From NCBI GenBank assembly GCA_041603535.1, contig JBFIEE010000008.1, positions 3,169-67,168 of the forward strand: DNA of 64,000 nucleotides, given 5' to 3'. Origin of the DNA: Porticoccaceae bacterium (GTDB lineage: Bacteria > Pseudomonadota > Gammaproteobacteria > Pseudomonadales > Porticoccaceae). Shown here piece by piece: positions 9,297 to 16,559 of this stretch (the first letter of the stretch is position 1; the number at the start of each line of letters is the position of its first letter). The notes below the pieces were generated by a model. The model was not told the origin of the DNA. It worked only from the letters and a program-made list of their open reading frames with translations, and did not search any database. The position numbers were made by a program, and so were the translations under genes.

Positions 9297-10004
9297 TCAC
9301 CGAGGTGGATCAAGACGGCTGCCGGTAGAATTATTCACCCGATACCAACCGGTGACGCTGTAGCGATTATTTTTCGTGGCAAGCACTTCGTGCGGGAAGT
9401 CTTCGCTGAGGAACACCGCCAGCGTGCCCGATAGTGGCGCGACCCGGGCGACGATGTCGCTACCTGCATCGGCGTAGATAACGAGTTCGCCAGCATCTTC
9501 GGGTACCCAGTTCGGGTTGAGATAGGCAACCACGGACAGTACGCGGTTAGCCTGACCCTTAAAGGCGTCACGGTGTATTTTGTAAAAGTCGCCGGGGCGG
9601 TAACGGGAAAAATGACTTTCAAAGGAAAACAGACCGAGCAAGAGCGTTCGATTAAGGTAGGTCTGGAGCAGCGCGGTCCAGGCTAACCATTGGCGTTGAG
9701 CCGCTGTTTCACCGCCAATCCAGAGGATGTCATTGCGGCGAACCCCCTTATTACATGTGCGATGGTTCTGCCGTCCTATACCGCCTCTGGCAAAAATGCT
9801 GTCTGGAACCTGCTGGATTTCCAGCAATAAAGCGCTGGCCAACGTAACCGGGAAAGCATTGGGCGTTATGCTGTAACCGTGCTGCAGGAGATCGCTTGCC
9901 ATGCGGGCGAAGGTGGTCTCTCCGCCGGCGACGCCAACCGTTTCATAAGGCCGATGACCGGATAGCAGATGGACTGATGTGGGGCGAAGTTGCGATACGG
10001 TCAT
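9297..10004 (-). CDS. 2OG-Fe(II) oxygenase superfamily protein (prolyl-hydroxylase-like)
   Basis: HRD...H facial-triad context (FYKIHRDAF ... FPHEV ... RYSVTGWYR). Confidence 0.7.
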   Translation of the reverse strand: MTVSQLRPTSVHLLSGHRPYETVGVAGGETTFARMASDLLQHGYSITPNAFPVTLASALLLEIQQVPDSIFARGGIGRQNHRTCNKGVRRNDILWIGGETAAQRQWLAWTALLQTYLNRTLLLGLFSFESHFSRYRPGDFYKIHRDAFKGQANRVLSVVAYLNPNWVPEDAGELVIYADAGSDIVARVAPLSGTLAVFLSEDFPHEVLATKNNRYSVTGWYRVNNSTGSRLDPPR

Positions 10005-10120
10005 TAAAGGTCTTCTCGGTATCGGGGACTGCGCAGTATTTGCCTCCTGGCCGGTGGAGTAAAGGAATTTGTCTGTATCGGGTCAAGGTGGAATTTAATG
10101 CTGGTTGTTCAATTAATGTC

Positions 10121-10149
10121 TTGCCATTTTTGTGGTTTGGTCTTATATA
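10121..10149 (+). promoter_or_regulatory. Sigma70-like promoter candidate upstream of ptsP
   Basis: TTGCCA (10121-10126), a 17-nt spacer and TATATA (10144-10149). Confidence 0.4.
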
Positions 10150-10295
10150 GCACCCGCAATGGGTGAGGCGTTCTGCCCGCTCAAAAAGATCGTGATTGCC
10201 GACTGCACTGGTGTCGGTGCTCTGGGTAGCATGACTGATATCAGATGGAAAAGCTCGGGGCGTAGACTCGGGACAAGGTGCCGGACAAGAACTGT

Positions 10296-12533
10296 ATGAG
10301 AAGTGTTATTCAAGAGCTGACCCATATTGTTCAGGCCGTTTCGCTTGCCGATTCGCCCGACCAGCAGGTGTCGTTGATTGTCGAGTCGATCAGCCGCTCG
10401 ATGGCTGTGGATGTCTGCAGCCTTTATCTGGTCAACGAGCAAGGCGATATGGTGCTGACGGCGACCCACGGCCTGGCTGGCGCGGCAGTGCGTAAGGTGA
10501 TTTTGCCTGCTGGTAAGGGTCTCGTTGGCCTGGCCGCCGCCAGCCGTCGCCCGGTTAATATCGCCGATGCGCCGCAGCATCCCGCCTATTTTTATGTACC
10601 TGAGGCTGCGGAAGACCGCTTTCACGGTTTTTGCGCAGTGCCGCTAGTTTCTTTGGGAAAAACCATCGGTGTCTTGGTGGTGCAAAGCAGCGAGATGCGG
10701 AAGTTTTCAAACGATGAAGAAGGCTTTTTCGTCACGCTGGCTGCCCAGTTAGCGTTGCTGCTGGTTAATTTTTCGCTGTCACCCTACGGTACCGAGAACA
10801 ATGTGCGCGTATTCGGTGTTAGCGGTGCCCCCGGTGTGGCAATCGGGCATAGCCAATTCTGTGATCACGGTGAACTCTATCAGGTGCCCAGCGGGGTTTG
10901 CGAAAATATCGAGACTGCGCTCGCTGACTGGCGCGCCTTGTTAAAGCAGGTGCGTTATCAACTGGAGGATGAAAGAAAAGCGCTTGGCAAGGTGCTGAGT
11001 GACGAGGCAGGCGGTATTTTTACGGCTTACAGCATGTTGCTTGAAGATCCCGCATTTAATCTCCGAGTAGAGACCCGTATTCGCGAGGGAAACTGGCTGC
11101 CGGGTGCTTTACGCTTGACCATACAACATTTTGCCGAGTGCTTCCTGGCGATGGAGGATCCTTATCTGCAAGCCCGGCATGAAGATATTCGTCATCTCGG
11201 TAACAAGTTGTATCAGGTGTGGCAGGGCGACAAGGGAGCAACGTGTCAAGCGGCAGTGGATGTGATACTGGTTGGGTCACAGGTTAGCGTGTCAGATATC
11301 GCCGCCGTTGCCGCGGGCCACCTACAGGGCATTGTCAGTTTTGGTGGATCGCGTTTATCTCATGCGGCGGTGTTGGCTAACGCACTTGGCATCCCGGCAG
11401 TGATGGGCACGGGGACAATTCCCGGATTGATGGATGGGCAGCCGCTGATTGTCGATGGACAACAGGGCCAGGTCTTTGTCAATCCGAGTGAAATCGTGTT
11501 GGGCGAGTATCGCAAGCTGATTCGTGAACACGATAAATTTATCCGTCAGCTAGATAATCTCCGTGAACAACCAGCGCTAACCATGGACGGCCAGTTCATT
11601 CATCTGTATACGAATACCGGGCTGTTGGCAGATATATCGCCTGGGCTGCGAGCCGGTGCACAGGGTATTGGCCTGTACCGCACGGAAATACCGTTTATGG
11701 TGCACGAGAGTTTTCCATCGGAAGACGAACAGGTGGCGGTGTATCGGCAGGTACTTGAAGCGTATCGAGGCAAGCCTGTTTATATGCGAACGCTTGATAT
11801 TGGCGGTGATAAACAGTTGCCGTATTTTGCCATACGGGGCGAAGACAATCCTGCGCTCGGCTGGCGGGGCATTCGTTTTTCCCTGGATAACAGTCAGTTG
11901 TTTATGACGCAGATCAGGGCTATGTTGCGAGCTGCGGAAGCTAGGAGCGATTTGCATATTCTGTTACCCATGGTGAGTTCGACCCAGGAGATCGACGACT
12001 TCCAGGTGTTGCTCATCGAAGCCATGCGCCAGCTCATTGAGGAGGGTGTAACGGTAGCGTTACCGCGGCTGGGGATCATGGTCGAAGTGCCTGCGGCTAT
12101 TTCACAGATTCCGATTTGGGCCAGAAAACTCGATTTTATTTCAATAGGTTCCAATGACCTCAGTCAGTATCTACTGGCCCTGGACAGAAACAACGCGCGG
12201 GTTGCATCGCGCTACGACCATGTGCATCCGGCTGTATTACACGAAATTCAACGTATCGTGATGCATGCCAGGGCCGGTCAAATCCCGGTCAGCTTGTGTG
12301 GTGAAATGGCCGCCGACCCCGTTGCTGTCGTGCTGCTGCTGGGCCTGGGACTGCGAACCCTGAGTCTGAGTGCCGCGAAGCTGCCCTATATAAAATGGTT
12401 AATAAGGACTATTTCCATACAGCAAGCTGAGGATGTCGTTAATCAGGCGCTGCTAATGGACAACGCCAAAACTATCAGGAGTCTGGTCGAAACAACGCTG
12501 AAAGAACTGGGGTTGACGGAAATTTTCCGTTGA
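10296..12533 (+). CDS. ptsP: Phosphoenolpyruvate-protein phosphotransferase PtsP (EI-Ntr) with N-terminal GAF domain
   Basis: N-terminal GAF domain, then PEP-utilising enzyme domains with the phospho-His context GGSRLSHAAVLANALGIPAV. The ORF opens at GTG 10278; ATG 10296 fits the family N-terminus. Confidence 0.92.
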   Translation: MRSVIQELTHIVQAVSLADSPDQQVSLIVESISRSMAVDVCSLYLVNEQGDMVLTATHGLAGAAVRKVILPAGKGLVGLAAASRRPVNIADAPQHPAYFYVPEAAEDRFHGFCAVPLVSLGKTIGVLVVQSSEMRKFSNDEEGFFVTLAAQLALLLVNFSLSPYGTENNVRVFGVSGAPGVAIGHSQFCDHGELYQVPSGVCENIETALADWRALLKQVRYQLEDERKALGKVLSDEAGGIFTAYSMLLEDPAFNLRVETRIREGNWLPGALRLTIQHFAECFLAMEDPYLQARHEDIRHLGNKLYQVWQGDKGATCQAAVDVILVGSQVSVSDIAAVAAGHLQGIVSFGGSRLSHAAVLANALGIPAVMGTGTIPGLMDGQPLIVDGQQGQVFVNPSEIVLGEYRKLIREHDKFIRQLDNLREQPALTMDGQFIHLYTNTGLLADISPGLRAGAQGIGLYRTEIPFMVHESFPSEDEQVAVYRQVLEAYRGKPVYMRTLDIGGDKQLPYFAIRGEDNPALGWRGIRFSLDNSQLFMTQIRAMLRAAEARSDLHILLPMVSSTQEIDDFQVLLIEAMRQLIEEGVTVALPRLGIMVEVPAAISQIPIWARKLDFISIGSNDLSQYLLALDRNNARVASRYDHVHPAVLHEIQRIVMHARAGQIPVSLCGEMAADPVAVVLLLGLGLRTLSLSAAKLPYIKWLIRTISIQQAEDVVNQALLMDNAKTIRSLVETTLKELGLTEIFR

Positions 12534-12572
12534 TGATTTTGGGAAAGGCTCATTTATCTGAGGGAATGCAGA

Positions 12573-13073
12573 TTGAAGGGTGATAACTTACTGTCCATCG
12601 CGCCATATGACTGGCCATCCATTGCCACGGCAATTTTTTGTGGCGCCATCATCGGTCTGGAGCGTCAACTTAGAGGCAAGCCGGTGGGAATTCGGACCTC
12701 ATCAATAATCACCATGGGGACGTACATATTTCTACATTCGGCTATGTTGCTCAATAACGATGTTAGCGACCCTTCCCGCGTGATTGGTCAGGTGGTTACT
12801 GGTATTGGGTTTTTGGGCGCGGGGGTAATGCTGGCGCGCGATGGCACGGTAGTGGGGGTTACTTCCGCCGCGTCAATTTGGGTGCTGGCTGCGATAGGCG
12901 TTACGATTTCTCTTGGTCATCTGATGGCCGCGATAAAATTGTCACTGGTCACGGTGGCGATTCTTTATGGCGTTGAGTTTCTGGAACAACACACCAAGAC
13001 ATTTAGTCGTGGCGTGCATTCGCGATACAGCAATCGCCGAAAAACGGACAAGTCTGGAGGGAGTAAGTTGTGA
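12573..13073 (+). CDS. MgtC/SapB family membrane protein
   Basis: 166 aa from a TTG start. It has an MgtC-type hydrophobic core (GLERQLRGKPVGIRT, GIGFLGAGVM) and lies 39 bp after the ptsP stop. Confidence 0.8.
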   Translation: MKGDNLLSIAPYDWPSIATAIFCGAIIGLERQLRGKPVGIRTSSIITMGTYIFLHSAMLLNNDVSDPSRVIGQVVTGIGFLGAGVMLARDGTVVGVTSAASIWVLAAIGVTISLGHLMAAIKLSLVTVAILYGVEFLEQHTKTFSRGVHSRYSNRRKTDKSGGSKL

Positions 13074-14536
13074 CCAATGTGCTGGTAATCGTCGACAATG
13101 TAGAAGATATTGAGGCATATGATGCCAACGGTGTTGTGATTACCTTTGCTGAGTATCTGCAGGAACATCCCAAGAAAGGCGAAAAGAAAATCCGTCTTAT
13201 TAATCTGTGTGATACCACGCATTACCTGAGCCGTGGTTATTATTGCTCTCTGCTGGCGGAGGCCCGTGGTCATCGGGTATTGCCGTCAGTTAACACTATC
13301 AACGACCTCCGCAACGAACAGCTTTACATGGCGCAGATTTCGGAAGGGTTGTTCCCTGATAAAGGGAAAGAGCAGGACCCTGAGCCGGGTACCAAAGAAA
13401 CGATTTATGTATATTTTGGACACGCGTCCGATCAGCGTTATGAAAAACTTGCACAGCGTTTATTTACGCTATTTCCCGCGCCCAGCCTGAAAGTGGTGAT
13501 GACCTGGAAATCCCGATGGAAAATCAATAGCATCCAACGCGTTGCTTTTGCCGGGTTGCCCCACAAGCAAAGACCGGCTTTCATGGAGGCATTGAATCGC
13601 TTTACTGAGCAGCACTGGAAAAGGAGCACCAGCAGGAAACGCTATCGTTGGGATATGGCTATTCTGGTTGAACCTGATGAAGCGATGCCGCCGAGCAACA
13701 AACTTGCATTGAGTAAGCTGATCAAAGCCGCAGAAAAAATTAATATCAATGCTGACCTGATCACCTCCGCCGATTACGCCAGGCTTAACGAATACGATGC
13801 CCTGTTTATCCGCACGACAACCGCCATTGATCACTACACCTACCGGTTCTCTCGCAAAGCGGATATTGAGGGTATGGTCGTCGTCGACGATCCCACATCT
13901 ATTTTGCGCTGTTGCAATAAAGTATTTTTACAGGATGCGTTTACCTACAACAAGGTGCCATCTTTAGCGACGCAGGCGGTATTTGGTTTTGATGGCAAAA
14001 CTGTCAGGGATATAGAACAACAATTTGACTACCCCATGGTATTGAAGGTGCCTGAGAGCTCCTTCTCGCGCGGTGTTTTCAAGGTCGCTGGACGAGAGGA
14101 GCTGGTCAATCGGCTGGAGCAGTTGCTGGCTGAAACGGCCATCGTACTCGTGCAGGAATACCTTTATACAGATTATGACTGGCGTATTGGTGTGTTCAAC
14201 AATAGGCCGCTGTTTGCCTGCCGGTATTTTATGGCGAGAAACCATTGGCAAATTTATAATCACAGCAGTGAACGCCATAGCAGTGGTGACTTCGAAACAA
14301 TGCCCACATTTGAAGTGCCCAAACCAGTGCTCGATGCTGCGCTTAAAGCGTCGAAAGTGATTGGTGATGGCTTATATGGTGTTGACATCAAGCAGCTGGG
14401 AAAGCAGGCCTATGTGGTGGAGGTCAACGACAACCCGAGTCTTGATCACAAAGTTGAAGACGTCTATTTGGGTGATGAATTATATATGCTGGTGATGAAC
14501 GAAATGGTCAGGCGCCTGGAGCTGCGAGGGCGATAA
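13070..14536 (+). CDS. RimK-type ATP-grasp ligase with an N-terminal RLAN-like domain
   Basis: The N-terminal ~200 aa contain INLCDTTHYLSRGYYCSLLAEARGHRVLPS. The C-terminal ATP-grasp core includes MVLKVPESSFSRGVFKV, VLVQEYL and GVDIKQ...YVVEVNDNP. The GTG start overlaps the mgtC-like stop (GTGA), and GGAGGG SD lies upstream. Confidence 0.8.
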   Translation: MTNVLVIVDNVEDIEAYDANGVVITFAEYLQEHPKKGEKKIRLINLCDTTHYLSRGYYCSLLAEARGHRVLPSVNTINDLRNEQLYMAQISEGLFPDKGKEQDPEPGTKETIYVYFGHASDQRYEKLAQRLFTLFPAPSLKVVMTWKSRWKINSIQRVAFAGLPHKQRPAFMEALNRFTEQHWKRSTSRKRYRWDMAILVEPDEAMPPSNKLALSKLIKAAEKININADLITSADYARLNEYDALFIRTTTAIDHYTYRFSRKADIEGMVVVDDPTSILRCCNKVFLQDAFTYNKVPSLATQAVFGFDGKTVRDIEQQFDYPMVLKVPESSFSRGVFKVAGREELVNRLEQLLAETAIVLVQEYLYTDYDWRIGVFNNRPLFACRYFMARNHWQIYNHSSERHSSGDFETMPTFEVPKPVLDAALKASKVIGDGLYGVDIKQLGKQAYVVEVNDNPSLDHKVEDVYLGDELYMLVMNEMVRRLELRGR

Positions 14537-15013
14537 GTGGCGGCTTCACTGGTTATTCGAAATGCCACTGCCGCCGACATCCCGATGCTGCTGGATATTG
14601 AAGGGAGCAGTTTTCCCAGCGACCATATTTCAAAACGGCAATTCAGTTATTTCCTGAAAAAAGCTAAAGCCAGGACATTCGTTGCCCTTGTTGACGGTGT
14701 AGTTAGTGGCTATGGCATTGTGTTATTGCCTGCACGGAGGAACTACGCGCGACTGTATTCGTTGGCGGTGGCCAAAAATATGAGGGGGGTTGGTATAGGC
14801 GATCGCTTATTGACGGCTGTCGATCAAGCGGTGGAAAATATGGGCTATTCTGCGCTGGGGCTGGAGGTTCGAGTTTCCAGTGTGGGCGTAAGAAGGCTCT
14901 ATGAAAAACACGGGTTTGTAGTTTGCTGCGTTCTGAGTGGATACTACGGCGATGGCGAAGACGGGCTCAAAATGAAAAAGCAGATGGGGAGTAGCGATAC
15001 TAAAAAATCGTGA
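14537..15013 (+). CDS. GNAT family N-acetyltransferase (RimI-like)
   Basis: Acetyl-CoA loop RGVGIGDRLL, and the RimI-like C-terminus YYGDGEDGLKM. The GTG start immediately follows the ligase TAA. Confidence 0.8.
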   Translation: MAASLVIRNATAADIPMLLDIEGSSFPSDHISKRQFSYFLKKAKARTFVALVDGVVSGYGIVLLPARRNYARLYSLAVAKNMRGVGIGDRLLTAVDQAVENMGYSALGLEVRVSSVGVRRLYEKHGFVVCCVLSGYYGDGEDGLKMKKQMGSSDTKKS

Positions 15014-15034
15014 ATATTGAGGGAATTATTTTTT

Positions 15035-15484
15035 ATGCTGAATAAAAACAGAAAAACTACTTGGTATGGAAAATTGGAAACCGCTACGTCGAGTACGGAG
15101 GTTATTTACGATCCGACACTACCGGAAGCACCAAAAAACCGAATCTATCTTTACAATGTCGAGCGTGGGCAAGTTATCCCGTACGTCTGGGAGATTGTCA
15201 AGGACTTGCTGAGTGAGGCTGAAGGTGAAGAGCGGACCGGGATTAAAAGCCGGGCAGGCAAACGCTGGAAGACCGCCCGCAAGACCTTTATGCAGGGCCG
15301 TATTATGTTGCCAAGGCAACCGATGTCCCCGGTGGAAACTAAAGTGGCCAGGCAGTCAGATGATGAAGAAATTATCGATCTGGGTATTCGCTTTGCAGAC
15401 GATGTGGACGATGTGGATGATGTGGATGATGTGGGTGATGTGGACGAAGTTGATGAGGAGGAAAGCTGCGAGGAAGATAGCTGA
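15035..15484 (+). CDS. Hypothetical 149-aa protein with a poly-acidic C-terminal tail
   Basis: ATG with GAGGGA SD 10 nt upstream, 21 nt after the GNAT stop. It ends ADDVDDVDDVDDVGDVDEVDEEESCEEDS. I recognise no domain. Confidence 0.6.
   Translation: MLNKNRKTTWYGKLETATSSTEVIYDPTLPEAPKNRIYLYNVERGQVIPYVWEIVKDLLSEAEGEERTGIKSRAGKRWKTARKTFMQGRIMLPRQPMSPVETKVARQSDDEEIIDLGIRFADDVDDVDDVDDVGDVDEVDEEESCEEDS
15398..15460 (+). repeat. In-frame 9-bp tandem repeat (GAYGATGTG, encoding DDV) in about 7 units, within the acidic-tail gene
   Basis: gacgatgtg gacgatgtg gatgatgtg gatgatgtg ggtgatgtg gacgaagtt gatgaggag, read directly from the sequence. Confidence 0.9.
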
Positions 15485-15597
15485 GCGTGGCGAGGGTCAG
15501 CATCGACGGCCACGCAGCTGTGCTGTTACGCTGGACCTTGGTTAGCTGGACAATCACTGTACCCGTCCTGGACATGATTGCTCAGGGCCTGATTGGT

Positions 15598-15661
15598 TCA
15601 GTACGCGGTTAGTGTAGTACCAGGTTAATGTAGTACGCAGTTAGTTCCGTGCCAGGTTGGA
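15598..15661. repeat. 16-bp degenerate tandem repeat x4 (consensus GTAGTACSMGGTTAGT)
   Basis: tcagtacgcggttagt / gtagtaccaggttaat / gtagtacgcagttagt / tccgtgccaggttgga. It lies in the convergent intergenic region and abuts the speB stop codon. Confidence 0.85.
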
Positions 15662-15662
15662 G

Positions 15663-16559
15663 TTATTCTGCGGATGTCGAACGTTGAATAATCCCCATCA
15701 TTTTGTAAACCAGTAAAGCGGCGGAAAACTCGTAGGTGTGAAAGCCCTGGATAGGAGAAAATTCCATTAAGTCAAAACCGATGATATTACGCTGCTTTGC
15801 TACAGACTCGAATAACGACAGCGTTTGATACCAGCCTAGACCACCCGGCACCGGGGTGCCGGTCGAAGGGAATATTGAAGGGTCCATGCCATCAATATCC
15901 AATGTGAAAAATACTTTGTCAGGAAAATCATCAGGTAAGTTTATCTGCATATGATTTTTCGGAACTAATACGTCAGCGTCGAGATGATGTATTGCGTATA
16001 GCTTTCGTGTGGCGATTTCTTCTTTACAGATGGCCCGAATGCCCAGCTGAAATAGCGGTATGTCTTCGTCGACGATGCGTTTCATTACCGACGCATGACT
16101 GTAAGGGTTGCCCTCATATGCATCGCGTAGATCTGCGTGGGCGTCGATTTGGACAACACCGAAATCACTAATCCCGGCGGCCAGCAAGCCTTTAATTACG
16201 CCGAAGGTCACGGTATGTTCCCCGCCCAGTGCAACAGGTATGCCGCCATGTTTAGCGATAGCTTGAGTCGCCAGGGTGATATTGGCTATGGTCTGATCGG
16301 CATCGCCACTGACGTCAACCGGAGGATGCGTGAAAATACCTTTTTCACAGGGTGAACTGGTGCCGTCCCAGGTTTCAAGTTGCCAGGAAGCGCCCAGAAT
16401 GGCGGCCGGCCCACGCGCTGTTCCACTGCCGTAGGAAACGGATTTTTCGTAGGGTACCGGCAGAACATGAAAGAAGGCTTCGTCCGGCTCCGGTTGCTTG
16501 AGCTCCGAGCCAAGGAAGATGGGGTAACCAGGTGCGGCGAGCTGATCAAATTCACTCAT
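15663..16559 (-). CDS. speB: Agmatinase (arginase/ureohydrolase family)
   Basis: Mn-site motifs GGEHTVT, QIDAHADLRD and TLDIDGMDPS. The ORF opens at 16574; the second ATG at 16559 is also possible. Confidence 0.9.
   Translation of the reverse strand: MSEFDQLAAPGYPIFLGSELKQPEPDEAFFHVLPVPYEKSVSYGSGTARGPAAILGASWQLETWDGTSSPCEKGIFTHPPVDVSGDADQTIANITLATQAIAKHGGIPVALGGEHTVTFGVIKGLLAAGISDFGVVQIDAHADLRDAYEGNPYSHASVMKRIVDEDIPLFQLGIRAICKEEIATRKLYAIHHLDADVLVPKNHMQINLPDDFPDKVFFTLDIDGMDPSIFPSTGTPVPGGLGWYQTLSLFESVAKQRNIIGFDLMEFSPIQGFHTYEFSAALLVYKMMGIIQRSTSAE

Follow-up and report, generated by a model that had tools for sequence, protein, structure and literature searches.

Ligases of the RimK family act on protein C-termini, as RimK does on ribosomal protein S6 and LysX/ArgX on the acidic C-terminus of LysW, a small protein encoded alongside them. 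ATP-grasp enzymes also take part in the synthesis of N-acetylaspartylglutamate (NAAG), which is made by NAT8L together with RIMKLA or RIMKLB and turned over by aspartoacylase, and of glutathione, which is made by GshA and GshB. The N-acetylglutaminylglutamine amide (NAGGN) synthetase Ngg is a fusion of a GNAT acetyltransferase and an ATP-grasp ligase that goes together with AsnO and an M42 hydrolase. A further group consists of RimK-like ligases with an N-terminal RLAN (RimK-like ATP-grasp N-terminal) domain. The link between these ligases and GNAT proteins is already on record from computational work, in Pfam (PF14401), and Iyer, Abhiman, Burroughs and Aravind are said to have presented them in 2009 (Mol Biosyst 5:1636) as predicted amidoligase systems. 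Here we analyse a 64,000-nucleotide stretch of a Porticoccaceae genome (contig JBFIEE010000008.1; hereafter the window), in which an RLAN-type ligase and a GNAT stand in a module of four genes at 12573-15484. This module adds to the known group a minimal variant with an MgtC-family gene and an incidental acidic-tail neighbour, designated gene 4.

The four-gene module and its conserved core

Both the listing of open reading frames (ORFs) and a direct reading of 12400-15700 confirmed four co-directional genes, which, together with their main internal features, are as follows:

12573..13073, + strand: MgtC/SapB-family membrane protein, 166 aa (PF02308)
13070..14536, + strand: RLAN plus RimK-type ATP-grasp amide ligase (predicted), 488 aa (PF14401 and PF08443)
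13148..13588, + strand: RLAN domain, ligase residues 27-173 (Pfam, invariant columns, AlphaFold2 model)
13997..14449, + strand: ATP-grasp catalytic core, ligase residues 310-460 (PF08443, PF07478; alignment to RimK 5zct/4iwx)
14537..15013, + strand: short GNAT acetyltransferase of the N-alpha-acetyltransferase type, 158 aa (PF00583)
15035..15484, + strand: acidic-tail small protein (gene 4), 149 aa, from an unannotated stand-alone family
15398..15447, + strand: 9-bp tandem repeat GACGATGTG, 5.6 copies, coding for (DDV)n of the gene-4 acidic tail (Tandem Repeats Finder)

The tight coupling of the four genes reported in a preliminary description of this DNA, made from the letters alone, was recovered in full, including every ORF and junction and both peptide strings quoted there. 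The MgtC-like gene has a TTG start with GAGGGA 6 nt upstream, and its TGA stop (13071-13073) overlaps the GTG start of the ligase (13070) by 4 nt, as GTGA, with GGAGGGAG at 13056-13063 ahead of the ligase start. The ligase TAA (14534-14536) is followed with a gap of 0 nt by the GTG of the GNAT gene at 14537, and the GNAT TGA (15011-15013) lies 21 nt from the ATG of gene 4 at 15035, which has GAGGGA 9 nt upstream. A promoter and terminator scan of 10000-15800 predicted no terminator between the four genes, and the counts of promoters and terminators in this region were at or below shuffle expectation. The same four-gene order and identical junctions were found in two near-identical contigs (L081 and L091; ligase 99% identical), and a three-gene version without gene 4 occurs in L082 (ligase 70% identity). 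Since the arrangement recurs in this way, it is conserved and not a chance pattern of ORFs.

The assignment of the second gene to the RLAN plus RimK-type ATP-grasp ligases, already made in the preliminary description, was borne out by a Pfam search. RLAN (PF14401) matches residues 27-173 with an E-value of 3.3e-44 (150.6 bits versus a cut-off of 25), the RimK ATP-grasp domain (PF08443) matches residues 310-460 with an E-value of 9.5e-8 (32.3 bits versus 21), and PF07478 also matches the ATP-grasp core. The catalytic residues are intact: across 33 homologues there is no variation at K326, Q362, R372, D439, E451 or N453, and all six line up with RimK 5zct. Because the ATP- and Mg-binding residues of RimK are thus preserved, the ligase is presumably active and would work through the acyl-phosphate intermediate established for the ATP-grasp superfamily. 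The enzyme belongs to the same ATP-grasp clade as RimK (4iwx, 5zct), with the Mg/ATP residues K326, D439, E451 and N453 in register, and, to judge from its family, the bonds that it makes are presumably alpha-peptide bonds at a carboxylate. Unlike RimK, however, it carries an additional RLAN domain of about 200 residues, and its conserved partner is a GNAT rather than the partners of rimK. The similarity to RimK is also remote: the core aligns to 5zct/4iwx with an E-value of only ~5e-4, and the ligase scores 27 bits against RimK NF007764 (cut-off 331) and 66.7 against TIGR00768 (cut-off 143.4). Its best NCBIfam matches are rimK_fam and then LysX, all far below the curated cut-offs (for the LysX equivalog, 61.4 bits versus 275.6). 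The gene of S6, rpsF, is absent from the window. More than 7,900 homologues were found, all composed of RLAN and ATP-grasp domains and carrying in databases only the names 'RimK family protein' or 'carboxylate-amine ligase'. They are mostly from marine gammaproteobacteria, where the ligase is common, and also occur in Azospirillum, Tistrella, Legionella and Pseudomonas aeruginosa.

The RLAN domain is marked by the near-invariant motif NLCDT..YLS.GYYCSLLAEAR.H.V.P., which contains two cysteines and one histidine within NLCDT..YLS.GYYCSLLAEAR.H. An AlphaFold2 model of ligase residues 1-205 (13070-13684) reached a predicted template-modelling score of 0.78, and the top 50 PDB fold matches to the RLAN model were all proteins of the ATP-grasp fold (best E-value 4e-5, TM-score 0.44-0.55). 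Among them were ArgX (E-value 4e-5), PsnB, LysX, RimK, D-Ala-D-Ala ligases and the ATP-grasp-fold kinases ITPK1 and PPIP5K2. The fold search thus raises the idea of RLAN as a second, degenerate module of ATP-grasp type. In an hhalign comparison, however, the profiles of the two halves gave a non-significant probability of 12%, leaving a duplication of the ATP-grasp half unsupported by sequence.

The third gene encodes a GNAT (PF00583, residues 18-127, E-value 3.6e-15). Its description as RimI-like was apt, insofar as rimI (TIGR01575) is its nearest NCBIfam family, with a score of 66.4 bits that lies below the cut-off of 86.4. The closest relatives of solved structure are SSO0209/Ard1 (E-value 6e-12), Naa10 and RimI, all of which acetylate alpha-amino groups.

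How general the pairing of these two genes is became apparent from a census of 80 species-level genome loci of the ligase, in which ORFs were called and neighbours clustered. For the adjacency of the GNAT, loci were required to extend 1.5 kb or more to each side, which left 70, and 61 of these have a GNAT within 5 kb of the ligase. In 55 loci it is located directly downstream on the same strand, mostly overlapping the ligase stop or starting a few nucleotides past it. The majority of the GNATs (46/61) are fusions of about 374 residues to DUF3335, a C39-like cysteine peptidase, and the other 15 are short, like that of the window. More distant homologues were taken from annotated replicons: in Azospirillum and Tistrella, whose ligases are 40-43% identical, the GNAT-DUF3335 gene is directly upstream of the ligase, so that the order is reversed. 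The ligase-GNAT pair is therefore a widely conserved core, its adjacency being kept across alpha- and gammaproteobacteria and in both gene orders. Second-tier neighbours include an M42-like peptidase directly upstream (19 loci), DUF155 (13), a prolyl 4-hydroxylase (P4H)-type 2-oxoglutarate (2OG)-Fe(II) oxygenase (13), PtsP (11) and DUF2817, an M14-like family with a weak match to AstE/AspA (8).

Against this background, the ligase of the window is a clear member of the PF14401 group and shares the GNAT association common to most loci, but the module around it is minimal. Its 158-aa GNAT is without the C39-like peptidase domain found in most homologues, the entire 64 kb contains no homologue of DUF3335, the M42-like peptidase, DUF2817 or DUF155 and no peptidase partner, and the pair is translationally coupled to an MgtC-family protein encoded upstream and followed by a lineage-specific acidic-tail gene. 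The same observations bear on the notion that the four genes are mere neighbours with no shared function, packed tightly by accident in a compact genome. The MgtC-like gene and gene 4 are each variable, and the gene-4 family is otherwise unlinked to the ligase, which fits such a view. However, the phylogenetic breadth of the ligase-GNAT adjacency, the recurrence of MgtC in several genomes, before or after the pair, and the overlapping stop and start codons kept in L081, L082 and L091 make it improbable.

Candidate products of the ligase-GNAT pair

The reading that we favour, albeit tentatively, is that the ligase and the GNAT together make a small N-acetylated peptide or amide in an ATP-dependent manner. 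With the RLAN/RimK-type enzyme, a carboxylate would be turned into an acyl-phosphate and then joined, through an amide bond, to an amino acid that by family precedent is probably Glu or Asp. The GNAT, being of the N-alpha-acetyltransferase type, would cap a free alpha-amino group. The expected product is thus a small and presumably acidic N-acetylated amino-acid conjugate or short peptide, and the hydrolases present in fuller modules (the GNAT-fused C39-like domain, the M42-like peptidase and DUF2817) might trim or recycle it. We favour this reading because the partners of the ligase are a GNAT, hydrolases of small amides or peptides and, in Legionella, a second carboxylate-amine ligase. Specifically, in Legionella adelaidensis (NZ_LR134436.1, L109:41-3232) the ligase gene overlaps that of a GCS2-family glutamate-cysteine ligase, which is followed by an N-formylglutamate amidohydrolase, a set that parallels the two-step logic of GshA and GshB. 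The preliminary description had proposed, as one of three possibilities, an N-acetylated acidic oligopeptide linked to the MgtC-family protein. Such a product is the best fit to the conserved partners; an association with MgtC is seen in one clade only.

The likeness to NAAG and glutathione synthesis is one of pathway logic only. In each case an N-capping enzyme is combined with a RimK/GshB-type ATP-grasp ligase, with amidohydrolases for turnover, and the GNAT, DUF2817 and M42-like genes of modules of this type, or the GCS2 and N-formylglutamate amidohydrolase genes of Legionella, could fill the corresponding places. The common logic would be to cap an amino group, with an acetyl or a gamma-glutamyl group, and then to extend the carboxylate. 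Ngg offers a similar parallel, as it too combines a GNAT with an ATP-grasp ligase and has an M42 hydrolase, reminiscent of the M42-like peptidase at 19 of the ligase loci. It differs in that the proteins of the window are separate, the ligase carries an RLAN domain and there is no amidotransferase gene. Moreover, the Ngg model TIGR03103 matches the GNAT alone, with 16.3 bits versus a cut-off of 569, and does not match the ligase.

Several observations weigh against the synthesis of a small molecule by the pair. Our literature search (covering PF14401, DUF3335, RimK with MgtC, and PA1345, among others) found no functional or experimental study of an RLAN-type ligase, in agreement with what the preliminary description had stated, and no product, substrate or phenotype for any member of the RLAN ligase/GNAT group. 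The census of 80 loci samples only the shell of nearest homologues (52-64% identity), out of more than 7,900 in the family. In seven Porticoccus genomes, which are the closest species-level relatives (64% identity), and in two others no GNAT adjoins the ligase; in Porticoccus the order is ptsP-(mgtC)-ligase, and after the ligase comes a small, divergent gene, which looks by eye like rpsT. The ligase of P. aeruginosa (NZ_CP133752.1, L105:5911-7500; 43% identity) is solitary, being located between genes for a short-chain dehydrogenase/reductase and a pyridoxal phosphate-dependent aminotransferase, near pagP and a glutamate/aspartate ABC transporter. These seven Porticoccus genomes and P. aeruginosa indicate that a GNAT next door is not required for the ligase to be retained, and perhaps not for it to act. 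Finally, a protein substrate for the module is plausible, since the nearest solved relatives of the GNAT are protein N-terminal acetyltransferases, C39-like peptidases usually cut peptides or proteins, and protein C-termini are the sites at which RimK and LysX/ArgX work.

This last point leads to the tailing of proteins or peptides, which we rank second and, taken by itself, regard as unlikely. Here the ligase would add Glu or Asp to a C-terminus, the GNAT would acetylate the N-terminus and the C39-like domain would process the substrate. The best NCBIfam matches of the ligase (rimK_fam, LysX), the relationship of the GNAT to protein N-alpha-acetyltransferases and RimI, and the fact that the usual fusion partner of the GNAT is a C39-like peptidase all point in this direction. 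On the other hand, the scores against the RimK, LysX and RimI equivalogs are all far below cut-off. In the lineage of the window, the acidic-tail protein, its gene being probably co-transcribed, could be the substrate, a question to which we return below.

Polyamine conjugation comes third in our ranking, and we give it little credence. According to this idea, which was another of the earlier possibilities, the ligase and the GNAT would attach an amino acid, an acetyl group or both to spermidine, norspermidine or a precursor. Glutathionylspermidine synthetase/amidase and SpeG provide precedents, and the combination of a papain-like amidase with an ATP-grasp-type ligase is reminiscent of the former. 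In the clade of the window the pair is indeed convergent with a speB-nspC-CANSDH-speA operon, and in an Oleiphilaceae metagenome-assembled genome (L040:598-8686) speA-CANSDH-nspC-speB-ligase-GNAT/C39 all lie on one strand, with 50 nt between speB and the ligase. However, this is the only one of the 80 species-level loci outside the window clade with adjoining polyamine genes, no such genes occur at the Porticoccus, Azospirillum, Tistrella, Legionella or Pseudomonas loci, and the similarity of the GNAT to spermidine acetyltransferases is marginal (E-value ~7e-3) and was seen only with a fusion representative. The adjacency noted earlier is thus real in the window clade and L040 and weak as a functional link.

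If the pair does make an N-capped acidic peptide, this would be an unrecognised bacterial metabolite, perhaps used for storage, for binding cations or as an anionic solute. The present analysis narrows the experimental target to the two-gene core and removes a tempting but unsupported substrate candidate. The solitary ligase of P. aeruginosa, which we take to be PA1345, is found in a genetically tractable host.

The acidic-tail gene as a separate small-protein family

Gene 4 evolves as a functional gene does: the ratio of nonsynonymous to synonymous substitution rates (dN/dS) is 0.16 against its homologue in L083 (76% amino acid identity) and 0.17 against that in L081, and the value for the adjacent GNAT is also 0.17. 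Since it is under purifying selection equal to that on the GNAT, gene 4 is a real gene, and it is probably co-transcribed with the module. A foreign origin was considered and rejected, as both its GC content and its GC content at third codon positions match those of neighbouring genes. A word-indexed search of 5.8 billion proteins returned only four close homologues. An exhaustive HMMER scan with residues 1-121 against 1.84 billion representatives (50% clustering) raised the number of relatives to 94, and a profile search to 138, all of them 'hypothetical' and without a Pfam domain. The protein itself had no match in Pfam, NCBIfam, PHROG or PADLOC, and in view of the missing PADLOC match a reading as a defence system was rejected as well.

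Members of the family have 120-150 residues and consist of an N-terminal domain with the pattern WYGxL…VIxDPxLPxAPxGxIYLYNxxRxxIVxY, a basic linker and an acidic tail, which often ends in a hydrophobic/acidic tip such as LEDMAFD, LEDIDFE or FELEDLG. In the AlphaFold2 model of the window protein, residues 1-90 (predicted local distance difference test, pLDDT, ~95) form a beta-barrel-like domain of five strands plus a long helix, and residues 91-149 (pLDDT ~50) are modelled as disordered. A Foldseek search with this model against PDB and BFVD gave nothing significant, the weak matches being PWWP/SH3/Tudor-like barrels with E-values of 0.35 or worse. The copy number of the 9-bp repeat differs among close relatives, and the tails of five close homologues differ by insertions and deletions, which fits a slippage-driven drift in the length of a disordered tail. 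Within these same five homologues the C-terminal core EVDEEESCEED is invariant, and the last residue is S or G.

The preliminary description had put forward the acidic-tail protein as the dedicated acceptor of the ligase and had asked whether such an ORF always follows the ligase-GNAT pair. It does not. Neither phmmer nor a composition scan for 10 or more D/E among the last 20 residues found a gene-4 homologue or an acidic-tailed ORF adjoining the ligase in any of the 80 loci, the only acidic tails in the scan coming from Porticoccus, in an ORF of about 395 residues some 4.5 kb away. L082 is the closest relative beyond the window clade to share its synteny (mgtC-ligase-GNAT convergent with speB-nspC-CANSDH-speA); it has no gene 4, and there the GNAT stop abuts the speB stop. 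Conversely, none of 18 loci of gene-4 family members outside the window clade has the ligase, the GNAT or MgtC within 5 kb, and these loci share no common neighbour, showing synteny only within sub-clades. One family member comes from a Holophagae metagenome-assembled genome. Thus, gene 4 is a neighbour of the module in one narrow lineage only, and its family is independent of the ligase. The idea of a dedicated acceptor fails because ligase-GNAT homologues elsewhere lack an adjacent acidic-tail ORF, the very outcome that the preliminary description had named as speaking against it. On our reading, gene 4 was inserted between the GNAT gene and speB in this lineage.

These results also bear on protein tailing as set out above. 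The position of gene 4 only 21 nt downstream with its own Shine-Dalgarno sequence, the purifying selection on it and the invariant core of its tail would suit a substrate. Speaking against it are the missing acidic-tail ORF at all 80 other ligase loci and at L082 and the missing ligase at all 18 other gene-4 loci. Across the family, moreover, the C-termini are not conserved, and tips such as LEDMAFD resemble interaction motifs more than acceptors of ligation. LysX/ArgX-LysW offers a parallel, in which a RimK-family ligase modifies a small co-encoded protein at its acidic C-terminus, and LysX is the second-best match of our ligase. However, gene 4 has neither the zinc ribbon, as judged from the AlphaFold2 model, nor an EDWGE-type tail, and is not co-conserved with the ligase, which sets it apart from carriers of the LysW type. 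We consider it highly improbable, although conceivable, that in one marine lineage the ligase has captured the acidic-tailed protein as an acceptor or carrier, like LysW or like S6 for RimK, so that it extends or loads the tail (…DEVDEEESCEEDS) and the GNAT caps the product. Protein tailing would then have newly evolved out of a module whose product in other genomes is a small molecule. Such lineage-specific use is conceivable because the genes of an enzyme and its substrate can lie apart, as illustrated by the S6 gene, which is not next to rimK; what speaks for it here is adjacency.

Regardless of the module, gene 4 defines an unannotated family of small proteins with an acidic tip like that of the single-stranded DNA-binding protein SSB, which may merit a study of its own. 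Several family loci (L100-L103, among the family loci L085-L104) contain two tandem gene-4 paralogues.

The MgtC-like gene and other neighbours

The first gene of the module, called MgtC-like in the preliminary description, is clearly related to this family (PF02308, residues 18-139, E-value 1.4e-30; 106.6 bits versus a cut-off of 31.4). The protein consists of the membrane domain alone, with no counterpart of the soluble domain found at the C-terminus of Salmonella MgtC. Accordingly, its matches to the NCBIfam MgtC equivalogs span only part of the profiles (positions 12-131 of 215 and 14-122 of 231) and fall far short of the cut-offs, and the score against the Salmonella-type MgtC model NF011912 is 81.7 bits versus 255, so that the full-length architecture is not present. 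MgtC homologues adjoin the ligase-GNAT pair, on either side, in about 12 of the 80 loci. As they do so in Cellvibrionales-like genomes only, MgtC is a clade-restricted accessory.

The P4H-type 2OG-Fe(II) oxygenase and PtsP recur near the ligase, GNAT and MgtC genes in varying orders (L026, L049, L058 and L075), and in the window their genes are located at 9297-10004 on the minus strand and 10278-12533 on the plus strand, respectively. The mgtC and 2OG oxygenase genes overlap in L049 and are 3 nt apart in L026, and this spacing suggests an MgtC-oxygenase unit. On pTM3 of Tistrella mobilis (L108:2680-6506), a gene for a GDT1-family divalent-cation/proton antiporter is found just upstream of the GNAT-C39 and ligase genes; like MgtC, this antiporter is a cation-related membrane protein adjoining the module. 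In the window, the spacer between gene 4 and the convergent speB contains a 16-bp tandem repeat, AGTACGCGGTTAGTGT, in 2.9 copies at 15600-15645.

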